A DNA stretch of 30,401 bases from a virus (taxonomy: Duplodnaviria; Caudoviricetes), in IMG/VR virus record IMGVR_UViG_3300025277_000096, positions 1-30,401 of that record; one strand, 5' to 3'. The notes under the pieces were generated by a model that was not told where the DNA came from, made no database searches, and was given only the letters and a program-made list of their open reading frames with translations. The position numbers and the translations under genes are program-made. Of this stretch, positions 135 to 30,092 are shown in pieces (within the stretch, counting starts at the first letter, position 1; every line of letters starts with the position of its first letter).

Positions 135-644
135 GATAAATATAACTGTTTAGAAACTGTTTCAAACAGTTTAAATACTGTATCTAGTACAGTTCAAGAT
201 AAGGACAAAGATATAAACATAGATAAGGTTAAGGATAAGGAGAAAGATATGAATCCAGCATTATTAAAAGTAAGTGAAAAACAAAAAAAGACAATAGGTT
301 ATAGAAGAACTATATTTTTAAGAAAGGTAAGTGAGTTTGCAGAAGAATATGATAAAGAGATGAGAATTGATTTTGCTGATTATTGGACAGAATCAGGTGG
401 TAATAAAATGAGATTTGAGAAGGAAAAAGTGTTTGATGTTTCTAAGAGGTTAGCAAGGTGGAGTAAAAATAACTTCAATAAGAAAGATGAAACTGGTAAG
501 TTTAAGTTAGATGCTACAGGAAATTCTTACATAGGATATTGTAGCAAATGTAGAGTATCAGATTTTTTCAATAAATGGGAATTACAAAACCTTGATAGTA
601 GATGTTGTAAAGTAAAGATAATTCCAGTTAGAGAGGATAAATGA
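3..644 (+). CDS. Phage replication initiator/replisome organizer, 3' part (true start at 30093; ~272 aa joined)
   Basis: In frame with 30093-30401 through the terminal repeat. Low-complexity DKDK linker, then F.DYWTE...RF....FD...RL.RW motif typical of phage initiator C-terminal domains, then a Cys-rich tail (CSKC...CC). Confidence 0.7.
   Translation: MDKYLKDHIEVIKDDKWFLRKFVDFQYGILNQNVKAHASVMKILDKYNCLETVSNSLNTVSSTVQDKDKDINIDKVKDKEKDMNPALLKVSEKQKKTIGYRRTIFLRKVSEFAEEYDKEMRIDFADYWTESGGNKMRFEKEKVFDVSKRLARWSKNNFNKKDETGKFKLDATGNSYIGYCSKCRVSDFFNKWELQNLDSRCCKVKIIPVREDK
144..250. other. Candidate replication origin (iteron-like) inside the initiator gene
   Basis: ACWGT at 145, 156, 166, 177, 189. 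Inverted repeats AAACTGTTT-C-AAACAGTTT (154-172) and ACTGTA/TACAGT (177-193), followed by A-rich GATAAG-like repeats. Confidence 0.45.
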
Positions 645-1462
645 AATCAGGCTGGAAAGCAGCACAAGGAAATGAAGATGCAGATCTAAAGATTATATCT
701 CTAGGAATGGGGGTACAATCTACTGCTGTATATTTAATGAGTTCTATGGAATACAAATTGCCCAGAGCAGATTATGCTGTCTTTGCTGATCCACAAGCAG
801 AACACCCTAAAACTTATAAATTATTAGAATGGTTGCTTGATTGGAAAAAGAAAAATAATGGGATAGAGATCATAGTAAATAAAGAGGAGAATTTATATAC
901 AGATATTAAAAGTGCATATAAAAACAATACTAGAGTGGTTTCTATTCCTGCACATACACATAAAAATGGAATAGTAAGAAGGCAATGCACAGAAACTTAT
1001 AAGATAAATCCTGTTATAAAAAGTGTTAGAAAATTACATGGATTAAAGCCTAGAAAAAGAATGAAACCAACAGAACTTTGGCTAGGAATATCTACTGATG
1101 AGATTCAAAGAATGAAAGAATGTTGGAAATATAATATAGATTATTTTTATCCATTGATTTATCACAATATGAGTAGGGCAGATTGTATGAATTTTTTTAG
1201 AGAGAATAATTTTCCAATTCCTGTAAAATCTAGTTGTGTGTTTTGTCCATTCCACTCTGATAAGTTTTGGAGATCTTTAAAAATAGAAAATGGGAGTGCT
1301 TGGAAGATGTCTGTAGAAATAGATAAAATTATAAGACAACACCCTAAAATGAAACAAAGACAATATCTTTCAAGACATTGTAAACCTTTGGATCAGATAG
1401 ATTTTCAAGAGAATCAGACAGATTTGTTTGTAGAAGAATGTGAAGGCTATTGTGGTCTTTAG
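641..1462 (+). CDS. PAPS reductase-like / adenine nucleotide alpha-hydrolase family protein
   Basis: N-terminal SLGMGVQST PP-loop-like motif, FADPQAE, RQCT..YKI.P, LGISTDE, YPLI, KSSCVFCPF and C-terminal ECEGYCGL. Confidence 0.8.
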   Translation: MKSGWKAAQGNEDADLKIISLGMGVQSTAVYLMSSMEYKLPRADYAVFADPQAEHPKTYKLLEWLLDWKKKNNGIEIIVNKEENLYTDIKSAYKNNTRVVSIPAHTHKNGIVRRQCTETYKINPVIKSVRKLHGLKPRKRMKPTELWLGISTDEIQRMKECWKYNIDYFYPLIYHNMSRADCMNFFRENNFPIPVKSSCVFCPFHSDKFWRSLKIENGSAWKMSVEIDKIIRQHPKMKQRQYLSRHCKPLDQIDFQENQTDLFVEECEGYCGL

Positions 1463-1463
1463 A

Positions 1464-1537
1464 AATTGAGGGGAGTGTCCTTAACCTTTCAAATCCCTAC
1501 ACTCTCATAGGGTTTGATCTCCATGCTCCCCTCAGTT
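1464..1537 (+). ncRNA. Candidate structured RNA (nested hairpin) with interior segments complementary to phage gene leaders
   Basis: Outer stem 1464-1478/1523-1537 (core TGAGGGGAG/CTCCCCTCA). Inner stem TCAAA(T)CCCTA/TAGGGTTTGA. Confidence 0.55.
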
Positions 1538-2986: not shown

Positions 2987-2993
2987 TTATAAT

Positions 2994-3341
2994 ATGCCTA
3001 TGGCTAATGCTAAAAAAGATACAAAATCTACAGGCAGACCAAAGAAATATGATATAGATACAGAAGAAGTAGAAAAGTTGGCAGGATTTGGTTGTACTAA
3101 CAGAGAAATGGCTAGTTTTTTTGGGTGTTCAGAAGATTTAATTAAAAAGAGTTATTCCAGTTTTCTGACAAAAGGGAGAGATGAGGGAAAAATTAGATTA
3201 AGAAAAATGCAATGGAATGCAGCAGATAGAGGTAGTGTTCCAATGTTAATATGGCTAGGCAAACAAGTATTAGGACAATCAGATAAACAAGAGATAACTG
3301 AAGTAAAACCAATAGATGATATAGTGTTTGATGGGTTGTAG
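2994..3341 (+). CDS. terS: Terminase small subunit
   Basis: GRPKK, HTH-like segment (GCTNREMASFFGCS) and MLIWLGKQVLGQ; immediately upstream of TerL. Confidence 0.8.
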   Translation: MPMANAKKDTKSTGRPKKYDIDTEEVEKLAGFGCTNREMASFFGCSEDLIKKSYSSFLTKGRDEGKIRLRKMQWNAADRGSVPMLIWLGKQVLGQSDKQEITEVKPIDDIVFDGL

Positions 3342-17583: not shown

Positions 17584-17638
17584 TATTGTTTTATTTGGCT
17601 CAAATTTGGTATATTAAAATACTAAATGGAGATTAAAT

Positions 17639-17908
17639 ATGTCAAAAAACACTAAAGTAGAAGGTGAGAATGTTAAGGAAATATCTTTTGATGTAAAAGA
17701 TTTAAACCTTGATGAAAGAATAGAGTTTATGAGTATTCTTAAAGGAAAATCAATATTGAAAGATTTTGGGTTTGCTAATTATGTTAATATGGTTAGAATA
17801 GCAACAACCCTTACAGATGATGAAATAAATGTTTTTACTGATGAGGAAATTACTTCTATAGCTTGGAAATGTTATAGTGTTATAAATAAAAAAAAACTGA
17901 AGAAATAA
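17639..17908 (+). CDS. Tail assembly chaperone (gpG-like)
   Basis: Between tail tube and tape measure; RBS GGAG; ends in an A9 slippery run. Confidence 0.75.
   Translation: MSKNTKVEGENVKEISFDVKDLNLDERIEFMSILKGKSILKDFGFANYVNMVRIATTLTDDEINVFTDEEITSIAWKCYSVINKKKLKK
17887..17897 (+). promoter_or_regulatory. Programmed -1 frameshift site
   Basis: AAT AAA AAA AAA CTG; the -1 frame is open (KTEEITLIINVWLSVKQ...) into the 17929-18294 ORF. Confidence 0.8.
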
Positions 17909-18294
17909 CATTAATTATCAATGTATGGTTGTCTGTTAAGCAACCTAAAACTCATATACCAAAAGAGTTTCCTTATAAGGGTTTGAATCCAGTTGCTAAT
18001 AAACAAGTAACTATAGAAAACAAAGAAGATATATATGAGGTATTAATGAATTGTTATGATGAAGCAATAGAGAGAGGATTTGATGTAGGTGAAGCACTCT
18101 ATAATCAACTTTTCTTCTTTGCAGATCCTGAACATATCTATGATAATGATTCTCAAAATCTTATAAAGAAATATATCTATTGTGAAGCCTTTAATTGTCC
18201 ACCTTACCCAAGTTTGCAGGAAACCCCTGCTACACTTGTAGATGATTTTTTACTCATAAAAAGAGAAATAGCTAAAGCAACTAAGGAAAAATAA
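17896..18294 (+). CDS. Tail assembly chaperone frameshift extension (gpT part of gpGT)
   Basis: The listed TTG start at 17929 lacks an RBS, and the frame is open back to the slippery site. Confidence 0.72.
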   Translation, partial: TEEITLIINVWLSVKQPKTHIPKEFPYKGLNPVANKQVTIENKEDIYEVLMNCYDEAIERGFDVGEALYNQLFFFADPEHIYDNDSQNLIKKYIYCEAFNCPPYPSLQETPATLVDDFLLIKREIAKATKEK

Positions 18295-26185: not shown

Positions 26186-26215
26186 TTGCTTTTAATGTAT
26201 ATTTATAGTTATATT
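26186..26215 (+). promoter_or_regulatory. Sigma70-like early promoter
   Basis: TTGCTT (26186-26191), 18 nt spacer, TATATT (26210-26215), with an A-rich upstream tract. Confidence 0.6.
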
Positions 26216-26256
26216 TAGGGAGGTTAGGGTTAATTAAATAAATGGAGATTAAAAAC

Positions 26257-26892
26257 ATGAATACAAAAGAAAATAAATATACAAAATCAAAAGAAATAAT
26301 AACTAACTCAAAATTCACTTTAAAAGGTGTGAAAACATTTTTAGGTAGAGAAGGTTATGGAGTAAATGCTACTTTATATTATGAAGGTAAAAAGGTTGCA
26401 TTTTTGTTAGATAGTGGTAATGGTGGAGAGTTAAGTGTAGATTGGGAAAGTAAGTATGATAGGAAAAAAGAGGAATTTATAAGAATACCTATAGTTGAAG
26501 AAGCTAAATTATATAGAGATACTCTTATTAATTCTTTACCAAAAACTACTTGGGGAGATTTAAGCGAAGCTAGGGGAGAAAAATCTATAATAGATTCTAA
26601 AGATGACTACACTTGGGATACTGAGGCTATTATGAATACTTTAGTAGATTATGAATTAGATAATAAAGAGTGGAAAAAGAACTTGAGAAATCTTTGCATA
26701 TTTAAAACTAAAGAAAAACAAATAATCAAGTTTAGGACAAAAGTAAAAGATTTTAATAATATTACCAATACAAAGAAATATGGTAGTATTAAAGTAATAG
26801 AGTATTTTGAGAAAGAATATAAAGATTGTGTAATACTTAATCTTCTACCTCAGAATAAGGCTTTTGAGTATTTTGTTAAATATATTAAATAG
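26257..26892 (+). CDS. Early hypothetical protein (start revised to ATG 26257)
   Basis: GGAG at 26244-26247 serves as RBS for ATG 26257; N-terminal KGVKTFLGREGYGVNATLY. Confidence 0.7.
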   Translation: MNTKENKYTKSKEIITNSKFTLKGVKTFLGREGYGVNATLYYEGKKVAFLLDSGNGGELSVDWESKYDRKKEEFIRIPIVEEAKLYRDTLINSLPKTTWGDLSEARGEKSIIDSKDDYTWDTEAIMNTLVDYELDNKEWKKNLRNLCIFKTKEKQIIKFRTKVKDFNNITNTKKYGSIKVIEYFEKEYKDCVILNLLPQNKAFEYFVKYIK

Positions 26893-26977: not shown

Positions 26978-27019
26978 TAATTTGAAAGGTTAAATAAATA
27001 ATAAAATGGAGATTAAAAA

Positions 27020-28622: not shown

Positions 28623-28721
28623 ATGATAGTAATATTAATTGTTTCACTTGTATTAAATGTATTGTTTCTAATTAAACTAAAATGGACACTTGATAAACTT
28701 CATAGAGTGTTAGGGAGATAA
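28623..28721 (+). CDS. Small membrane peptide, 32 aa (absent from the ORF track)
   Basis: RBS AAGGAG; MIVILIVSLVLNVLFLIKLKWTLDKLHRVLGR. Confidence 0.6.
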   Translation: MIVILIVSLVLNVLFLIKLKWTLDKLHRVLGR

Positions 28722-28726: not shown

Positions 28727-29280
28727 CATTCAATGATAGAGGCTGGGATAGACCTAAATTAATCTCAATTAAAAAACAATTTATTGAAGAAGCATATTTA
28801 TATTCATTTAAATCAAGAGAGTTTACTTCAAACAGGCATGATTTTCATGAAGGTGGAATAAATGCAAAACAAAGAAAAATGTATGAAGGTAAATTAGGAG
28901 AAAAAATATTTAAACAATTCCTGATAGACAATAACATTGATTTTACTGAAGATTCTTCTCATCATACTGAAGCAGATAAATATGACTTTATCATCAATGA
29001 AGATTTATTGGTTGATGTAAAAACAAGAACAAAAGATTTTCATACTAGAACACTTGAGATGGTGGAACAATTCAATAAGAATCCAAAACATATTTATATA
29101 TCTGTGCGATTATATGTTGAAGATAAAAATGGATTTATTATTGGCTGGGTTGGGAGAAGTGATATTAAAAAAATAAATAGAATAGAGAATAATGGGTATT
29201 TAGATAATTATGTTATTTATGATAATGAATTAAGGGATATGAATACTCTAATGGACAACATAAGAGTGTTGGGGAGATAA
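28723..29280 (+). CDS. PD-(D/E)XK restriction-endonuclease-fold protein
   Basis: GKLGE helix, YDFII and VDVKT catalytic pattern; IIGW. Confidence 0.65.
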   Translation: MTFNDRGWDRPKLISIKKQFIEEAYLYSFKSREFTSNRHDFHEGGINAKQRKMYEGKLGEKIFKQFLIDNNIDFTEDSSHHTEADKYDFIINEDLLVDVKTRTKDFHTRTLEMVEQFNKNPKHIYISVRLYVEDKNGFIIGWVGRSDIKKINRIENNGYLDNYVIYDNELRDMNTLMDNIRVLGR

Positions 29281-30045: not shown

Positions 30046-30092
30046 GGAAATATTTGTTAAGTTTGGGTTAAGGTTAAAAAAGGAGATTAATT

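Follow-up and report, generated by a model that had tools for sequence, protein, structure and literature searches.

The phage antisense repressors known to be of similar size to the RNA described here, C4, CI and sar, have a role in lysogeny and act on one operon each. In C4 of phages P1 and P7, a b' loop occludes the ribosome-binding site (RBS) and an a' loop binds upstream of it for specificity (PMC5320573). Section 16 of the same source describes C4 as maintaining lysogeny, and its operon context is given as immI-type with icd/ant (PMC8198154). CI of satellite phage P4 is described as a processed antisense RNA that pairs with sites in its own operon and silences replication genes (PMC4825925). 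In the same account, IsrK of Gifsy-1 has two functions: it is a regulator, and it also forms the 5' part of a message and conceals the start there. SviR of the Vibrio PLE (bioRxiv 10.1101/2022.04.08.487710) and sar of P22 (PMC12197685) are described as trans-acting RNAs that lower the translation of phage genes.

The window analyzed here, a stretch of 30,401 nucleotides, represents a complete phage genome that is circular and ~30.3 kb long; its two ends overlap by 134 nt. Its GC content is about 30-39%, and all of its annotated genes are on the + strand. The early genes start at ~26.2 kb and are followed by a small HTH gene, unnamed genes, the replication initiator gene rep, a PAPS-reductase-like gene and a hairpin element; after the element come a zinc-finger ORF, a Mom-like gene, RusA, terminase, head genes and tail genes. 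The element is almost certainly a real, conserved structured RNA. It probably functions as a bipartite antisense RNA in the manner of C4 and CI, repressing the translation of the early genes and rep.

Like C4 (RF01695; c4-2 motif) as its published descriptions present it, the element is about 70-77 nt long, has a long closing stem, would lie within a longer phage transcript and shares its strand with its targets. It also shares with C4 two short single-stranded guides, one for specificity upstream and one to cover the RBS, which are recognized here by complementarity only. Unlike C4, with its three stem-loops P1-P3 (a tetraloop and the a'/b' loops), the element has two helices, one internal loop and a variable apical loop, and its guides are on opposite sides of that single internal loop. 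The targets of C4 are icd/ant, whereas those of the element are 1-5 kb upstream, number three to five per genome and include rep and an internal rep start. C4 is an RNase P product of ~77 nt, but an RNase P-type CCA at the stem end was present in only 5 of 33 loci. The C4 immI-type operon also differs from the neighborhood of the element, which consists of rep, the zinc finger, Mom-like and RusA genes with no integrase or S24 repressor found. In the window, the Rfam model RF01695 had no match with E up to 1, and five further loci had none either. Judged from sequence, the element is not a member of C4, as it has no model match, two stems instead of three and no icd/ant context. It is probably a C4/CI-kind RNA in a new form, with an uncatalogued structure.

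The element resembles P4 CI as described in being antisense, by complementarity, to its own replication genes. However, CI acts in lysogeny through premature transcription termination at the flanking seqA/seqC, whereas the element would act at RBSs located kilobases upstream. Neither a sequence match nor an Rfam match between the two was found. Like IsrK in that account, the element would combine a regulatory role with that of the 5' part of a message and hide the start of this message, but IsrK activates its downstream ORF and has no multi-leader anti-RBS guide, and no homology to it was found. SviR is described as targeting another genome in addition to its own and sar as targeting one antirepressor mRNA; the parts of these accounts that were examined describe no two-part tag shared by several of the RNA's own early genes. 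The element also differs from cis-encoded antisense RNA, which comes from the strand opposite its target and pairs perfectly over a long stretch, in its + strand fold, its distant targets and its pairing over 5-14 bp. A search of the window against Rfam gave no match at E up to 1, and no description of the element was found in the literature searched, which included PMC2864571 and PMC5737381, whose supplements could contain motifs that Rfam lacks. The fold, which is without an Rfam entry, could become an Rfam family.

The original prediction of a hairpin at 1464-1537 was confirmed. The fold had a predicted free energy of -29.6 kcal/mol (z, -5.1), and none of 200 shuffled sequences was equally stable. 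The designation of the hairpin as intergenic was only partly correct, as the 3' arm holds the ATG at 1523 and the first codons of the 55-aa zinc-finger ORF. Relatives were gathered by pattern scans and rep-anchored scans, and 45 clade loci were chosen to omit most duplicates. A covariance model built from 14 copies matched the element in 39 of these 45 loci, with E values of 1.2e-16 or better. The other six, in which no match was obtained, are on truncated contigs that extend less than 48 nt or at most 48 nt past the rep match.

Among 30 distinct copies, pairing was seen in 96.8% of 590 cells, compared to 31-56% in slid controls, and 13 of 20 base pairs had changes on both sides; these counts are from a model-fitted alignment that leans towards the structure, the model itself having been built from 14 sequences. 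RNAalifold on a plain MAFFT alignment recovered the inner stem only, which is attributed to misalignment of the outer arms by MAFFT. Across copies, G·U pairs numbered 43 and A·C pairs 1, indicating that the + strand is the folding strand. A minus-strand RNA was rejected on the same ratio and on the better fold of the + strand in 27 of 33 loci. An intrinsic terminator was rejected as well, since the sequence after P1 is purine/A rich in most of the 33 loci and contains no conserved U tract; the single match of a terminator scanner consisted of P2 followed by the C' loop. A minus-strand stretch at 18060-18106, within ORF 17929, weakly resembles the portion of the element that spans A' and P2; with an nhmmer E value of 3.2, this was taken as chance.

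Coordinates of the element, its candidate sites and neighboring features in the window
Feature	Position	Strand	Description
Structured RNA element	1464..1537	+	P1, 1464-1478 with 1523-1537; internal loop; P2, 1489-1499 with 1508-1517
5' loop A'	1479..1488	+	CCUUAACCU core; likely specificity guide
Apical loop	1500..1507	+	ACAC-N-CU motif (segment B)
3' loop C'	1513..1522	+	UCUCC free; may be extended by invasion of UUUGA in P2; candidate anti-RBS guide
Candidate target 1, first early gene leader	A 26219-26229; C 26242-26253	+	ATG 26257
Candidate target 2, ORF 27020 leader	A 26985-26993; C 27006-27017	+	A pairing 14 nt with stem invasion
Candidate target 3, rep leader	A 30065-30073; C 30082-30090	+	A helix -11.5 kcal/mol
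Candidate target 4, inside rep	225..251	+	A 225-235; GGAG 239-242; in-frame ATG 249
C-only site before ORF 17639	17626..17637	+	GGAGAT leader in 6/6 complete genomes; A absent
rep, replication initiator	ATG 30093 across the 134-nt terminal overlap to 644	+	phrog_6251 replisome organizer
PAPS-reductase-like gene	641..1462	+	phrog_424, E 4.5e-38; stop just 5' of P1
CxxC-CxxC zinc-finger ORF, 55 aa	1523..1690	+	Start and first codons form the P1 3' arm; no Shine-Dalgarno sequence upstream
Predicted early sigma70-type promoter	26186..26215	+	TTGCTT, 18 nt, TATATT; consensus match only
Predicted late promoter	2988..3002	+	-10 box TATAAT, 6 nt before the ATG of the terminase small-subunit gene (TerS)

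The gene upstream of the element differs among relatives, and the PAPS-reductase-like gene is not a fixed partner. A link to the latter was rejected, as none of 77 loci anchored on that gene had a model match better than E 2. Together, these results indicate that the element travels with the rep clade. In 59 outgroup and other distant rep loci, no model match was better than E 0.11. Two candidate distant members, L153 (E, 0.11) and L105 (E, 2), were rejected because the structure was not formed and no matching leader sites were present, and L168 and L169 had pattern matches only, with no fold. No close cultured relative of the phage was found in the phage collection; a single distant rep match was found in the GTDB genomes, and neither search identified the host. 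In the window at 641-2625, the slots beside the element exchange PAPS-reductase-like, Mom-like and other modification-type genes in the relatives; by its apparent gene content, this region is a variable DNA-modification cassette.

The hairpin is predicted to be open only at 1479-1488 (A'), in the apical loop and at 1518-1522 (C'). The mean unpaired probabilities over 33 loci were 0.98 for A', 0.97 for C' and 0.89 for the apical loop. These loops are nearly invariant, while the stem sequence has been rewritten across copies. The A' loop reads CCTTAACCT in 29 of 30 distinct copies and contains CTTAACC in all 30; C' contains TCTCC in 29 of 30; and the ACAC-N-CU of the apical loop, which varies in length, is kept in 30 of 30. 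No conserved complement of the apical loop was found among the 33 loci searched, and this loop may bind a protein or a host RNA. Segment B, which includes the apical loop, had been proposed as an independent guide to the RBSs of two genes that we take to be nucleases from motifs assigned by eye. Its matches to 28704-28716 and 29263-29275 (1494-1505, with one bulge) are present, but they fall in the coding ends of upstream ORFs, and B followed by GGAG occurs in only 2 of 33 loci, namely the window and a near-identical genome, some of the 33 loci being incomplete. Thus, B is not retained as a guide.

The A' and C' loops, which flank the inner hairpin, mirror a two-part tag. This tag consists of AGGUUAAGG (AGGTTAAGG at the DNA level), a spacer of 0 to about 20 nt and a GGAGAU ribosome site. 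In the leader of the first early gene, the A helix is predicted at -13.0 kcal/mol (11 pairs with G·U) and the C helix at -6.7 kcal/mol, or -13.5 kcal/mol when extended. This gene more likely starts at 26257, as inferred from Shine-Dalgarno spacing; no named family was found for its protein in the Atlas. The predicted guide-target helices are short, with 7-11 bp for A and 5-6 bp for C, and many sites read AGGTTAAA and lose the last two (CC) pairs. The A site was present in 32 of the 33 clade rep leaders, the exception being L197, in which it is lost, and was absent from all 43 outgroup rep leaders; the second and third early genes are also preceded by an A site. Across the clade, the RNA and the tag are present together and absent together. 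In each of the five complete relatives, the bipartite pattern gave three to seven matches per genome, all on the coding strand, compared to zero or one for a control pattern. In the six complete genomes, 17 of 18 A-tagged leaders with GGAG had GGAGAT, versus 32 of 121 untagged leaders (P = 3e-8). The RNA very probably pairs with the leaders that carry both A and C.

The original prediction had three segments (A, B and C) tiling many leaders independently. Instead, A and C appear as one guide, and B has no conserved target. The match of segment A is exact, with 1481-1494 complementary to 26980-26993 and 1479-1486 to 30066-30073, but the 14-mer is not the guide: the conserved guide is CCUUAACCU, and the stem part matches only in this lineage. 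Segment C (1513-1524) pairs as described with ATGGAGATTAAA at 26242, 27006 and 17626. The coincidence of A and C on the same leaders stands, as one two-part guide, whereas C alone is an extended anti-Shine-Dalgarno sequence. The sites originally listed as targets are present, but the list lacked the A-plus-C sites at 26219-26229 and, inside rep, 225-235. The reservation that the segments are partly buried was justified, as the rest of A, B and C is in P2, and 1523-1524 of C is in the outer stem.

Since the site at 17626 has no A, it is a doubtful and at most weak target. ORF 17639 encodes 89 aa and follows the tail tube gene; its leader (window, 17600-17641) has TAAATGGAGATT in each of the six complete genomes, and in most of the six a short inverted repeat precedes it. 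In two relatives (G001:15705 and G003:24663, near L146 +5346 and L138 +5986), small genes with a full A-plus-C leader are inserted in the head-gene region, and on visual comparison the product of the latter is similar to that of the first early gene in G001.

The tag also occurs inside rep. In 31 of 33 genes, A and GGAG are followed, at a distance of exactly 6 or 9 nt from GGAG, by ATG or GTG in frame, while A with GGAG was found in 1 of 43 outgroup rep matches. The exchange of ATG for GTG at a fixed distance from GGAG suggests a real internal start. Initiation at 249 is predicted to yield the C-terminal half alone, and the tag thereby exposes a putative, unannotated internal start in the initiator gene.

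Anti-Shine-Dalgarno-like sequences match RBSs easily, a caution raised with the original prediction. It holds for C alone but not for A, as the best-pairing leader of A' was that of rep or of the first early gene in 6 of 6 complete genomes. In the comparison with shuffled sequences, proposed at the same time, the 14-nt match exceeded chance: a match of 14 nt or longer occurred in 8 of 1,000 shuffled interiors on the + strand and in 3 of 1,000 against leaders only. Seventeen leaders paired with A' at -8 kcal/mol or better; shuffled A' sequences gave a mean of 5.6 and a maximum of 17 (300 shuffles per genome). In single genomes, the counts of strong A' leaders had P values of 0.03-0.25 and were significant in only 1 of 6, and the sums of the top three had P values of 0.003-0.08. 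This weak significance per genome may be attributed to the C/U-rich shuffles, which also match purine-rich leaders.

Covariation of the guides with their own leaders in relatives, also proposed earlier, was found for the rep and early leaders and not for the internal site. Guides paired with their own rep leaders over 10.24 bp and with those of others over 9.32 bp (n = 17, P = 0.001); the respective values for early leaders were 9.71 and 9.03 bp (n = 14, P = 0.014). One locus per guide type was used, the early leaders were chosen by motif search, and the permutation ignores phylogeny; therefore, these P values are generous. At the internal rep site, the own-versus-other energy difference was not significant (P = 0.25), in a test with uneven guide lengths for six loci and without the rep of L146. 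The covariation of the guide flanks with their own sites is thus modest, with an effect under 1 bp. A UU before the guide core meets sites ending in AA on two separate branches of the rep tree (L188 and L131/L182/L185), and 53 of 56 leaders have T or C opposite the guide G, which is compatible with a G·U or G-C pair. The core is otherwise almost invariant, and its single clear change is in L200, where the guide core is UCUUAACCA and the rep and early leaders both read TGGTTAAGAA, a double change. Counter-evidence comes from the same locus, in which the leaders have GGAGAG while C' is unchanged, and the internal site did not follow. Taken together, covariation, co-occurrence and site placement uphold that part of the original prediction in which a structured + strand RNA has loops complementary to its own early and rep leaders.

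In the early promoters, the predicted +1 is close to the A site, which occupies about +1 to +5 and repeats with a 6-nt period; in relatives, TTGACW or TTGGAA boxes occupy the position equivalent to the predicted early promoter. Because of this location, a DNA operator is the main rival explanation for A. Under this alternative, AGGTTAAGG would be a DNA site: an operator or iteron bound by Rep or by the XRE-type HTH protein of 83 aa, or else a promoter element within the initially transcribed region. The hairpin copy would be an inverted operator, and the hairpin itself only a cis translation lock. Replication origins are often located in initiator linkers, and one A copy lies in a low-complexity linker of rep. 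A changing protein specificity would also produce flank covariation among copies. However, A is tied to the RBS both in the leaders (GGAGAT, 17/18) and inside rep (GGAG with an in-frame start, 31/33), it also stands 5' of the second and third early genes, and the spacing between A and C has no helical phase. Moreover, the only inverted copy in each of the six complete genomes, AGGTTAAG, which is found exactly once per genome on the noncoding strand, is the open loop of a + strand fold that contains G·U pairs. The minus strand of the hairpin reads C and then A, the reverse of the leaders, and therefore does not carry the whole tag in inverted form. A DNA site is regarded as improbable.

The position of the hairpin over the next start codon makes a cis role evident in the predicted fold. 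The start codon at 1523 has an unpaired probability of 0.26 and the next 8 nt one of 0.0, in 28 of 33 loci the upstream gene stops between -12 and +4 nt relative to the stem, and C' is 0-5 nt 5' of the AUG in 33 of 33. The zinc-finger ORF is kept in 32 of 33 loci; in L198, a different ORF uses the same AUG. Readthrough of TAG from the upstream gene was rejected, as there is a second in-frame TAG at 1508-1510 and the frame relation varies. The zinc-finger ORF had a weak PHROG HNH match (E, 5e-4) and no named Atlas family among its top matches. The ORF that starts at the AUG of the 3' arm in L198 (from about 8845) is ~200 aa long, with motifs that, read by eye, we take to be methyltransferase-like.

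These features could also be explained by a hairpin that serves translational coupling in cis only, with S1 or another protein as the reason for the conservation of the loops, and with matches to the leaders arising as a by-product of anti-Shine-Dalgarno-like composition. The largely paired start codon, the nearby upstream stop and the retention of the AUG despite replacement of the ORF in L198 all agree with this, as does the matching of some leaders by shuffled loops. It leaves unexplained, however, why a 9-mer complementary to the loop is present at the rep and early starts of the clade and not of the outgroup, and it does not account for the change in L200 or for the preference of guides for their own sites. 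We consider a cis-only role to have little chance of being correct, while cis coupling is compatible with antisense repression as a second role of the same hairpin.

In the proposed antisense mechanism, A' would bind the upstream box and give specificity, and C' would cover the Shine-Dalgarno sequence. Pairing of C' may be extended by invasion of the weak lower P2, at a cost of 4.6 kcal/mol for a helix of up to -13.5 kcal/mol. With P1 looped out, the leader would follow one strand of the internal loop downwards and the opposite strand upwards, a path that would explain both why A precedes C in guide and target alike and the spacing of 0 to about 20 nt. In the guide pocket of H/ACA RNAs, the target likewise pairs with both strands of one internal loop. 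The likeness is one of geometry only and implies no homology: in the element, the outer stem would replace the upper stem as the place of the turn, and there is no modification enzyme or H/ACA box.

Translation would be blocked at the first early genes, at rep and at the predicted internal rep start. As the element is downstream of its main targets on the same strand, it would appear after their transcription, which would amount to delayed negative feedback. Such feedback would likely end early expression and cap the synthesis of the initiator. The RNA may act either in excised form or as part of the long message. In the uncut message, P1 would bury the next AUG, and it is likely that ribosomes completing the gene before it open the stem. 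Leaderless initiation is predicted for the terminase small-subunit gene from the predicted late promoter, whose TATAAT/TATACT-N6-ATG spacing recurs at this gene in several relatives; without a leader, it would escape an anti-Shine-Dalgarno RNA.

The pairing might also work in the opposite direction, with the early leaders acting on the hairpin so that pairing at C' invades P2 and opens the next start, as in the activation of orf45 by IsrK through refolding (described in PMC4825925). The position of C' just before the AUG would suit this, and the -13.5 kcal/mol of extended C pairing outweighs the cost of opening lower P2. On the other hand, P1, which holds the AUG, stays intact when the loops pair. 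This reversal is very improbable, and since the pairing covers the Shine-Dalgarno sequences of the leaders, repression of the leaders would follow in any case.

The gene content bears on whether antisense repression of the early genes and rep would serve lytic timing or immunity. Lytic timing is about an even chance. An unlikely but weightier alternative is that the same pairing maintains immunity or a carrier state in the style of C4 and CI, or excludes superinfection. The nature of the targets, the first early genes and the replication initiator, would fit this role, and parts of the sources on the two RNAs describe P4 CI as blocking replication genes in lysogeny (PMC4825925) and C4 as maintaining it (PMC5320573). 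The gene content points the other way: no tyrosine integrase was found in the window or the five complete relatives (0/6 genomes), and neither a resolvase nor an S24-type repressor was found in the five complete relatives searched (0/5). In addition, the sequence immediately 5' of the element showed no conserved promoter dedicated to it, and the near-invariant core would give few immunity types. If lytic timing is the role, the element would represent an RNA-only shut-off of multiple genes in an apparently lytic phage, with the replication initiator among the targets.

A broader and rather doubtful proposal combines both roles of the hairpin in this apparently lytic clade. A pocket-guide RNA acting on early and rep tags, together with a stem lock unwound by ribosomes, would form a double-negative switch free of a protein repressor, and the hairpins of a sister clade would be interchangeable regulators. 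Here, the two guides across the internal loop would clamp the shared tag, and the same stem would lock the next gene until unwound by ribosomes coming from rep or from coupled neighbors. The sister clade appears to use a different long-stem hairpin, and such RNAs are perhaps general in these phages.

The sister group, whose rep is mostly 34-42% identical, is without the RNA described here. In 19 of 46 of its loci, different hairpins with long stems were observed that conserve GUCAUGUU or UAGUCAUCU, 1.2-3.1 kb upstream of rep (L211, L212, L216, L217, L220, L223, L225, L227, L230, L235-L237, L240, L241, L244, L246, L248, L253 and L256). For L216 and L220, no Rfam family was over threshold. Start codons that lie within AACAUGAC are complementary to the GUCAUGUU loop. 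Leaders with GGAG and then AACATGAC are present in L220, L227 and L241; this leader was not found in most loci and is present in some loci without the hairpin. The hairpin of L220 also contains a stretch similar to the ACAC-N-CU of the apical loop.
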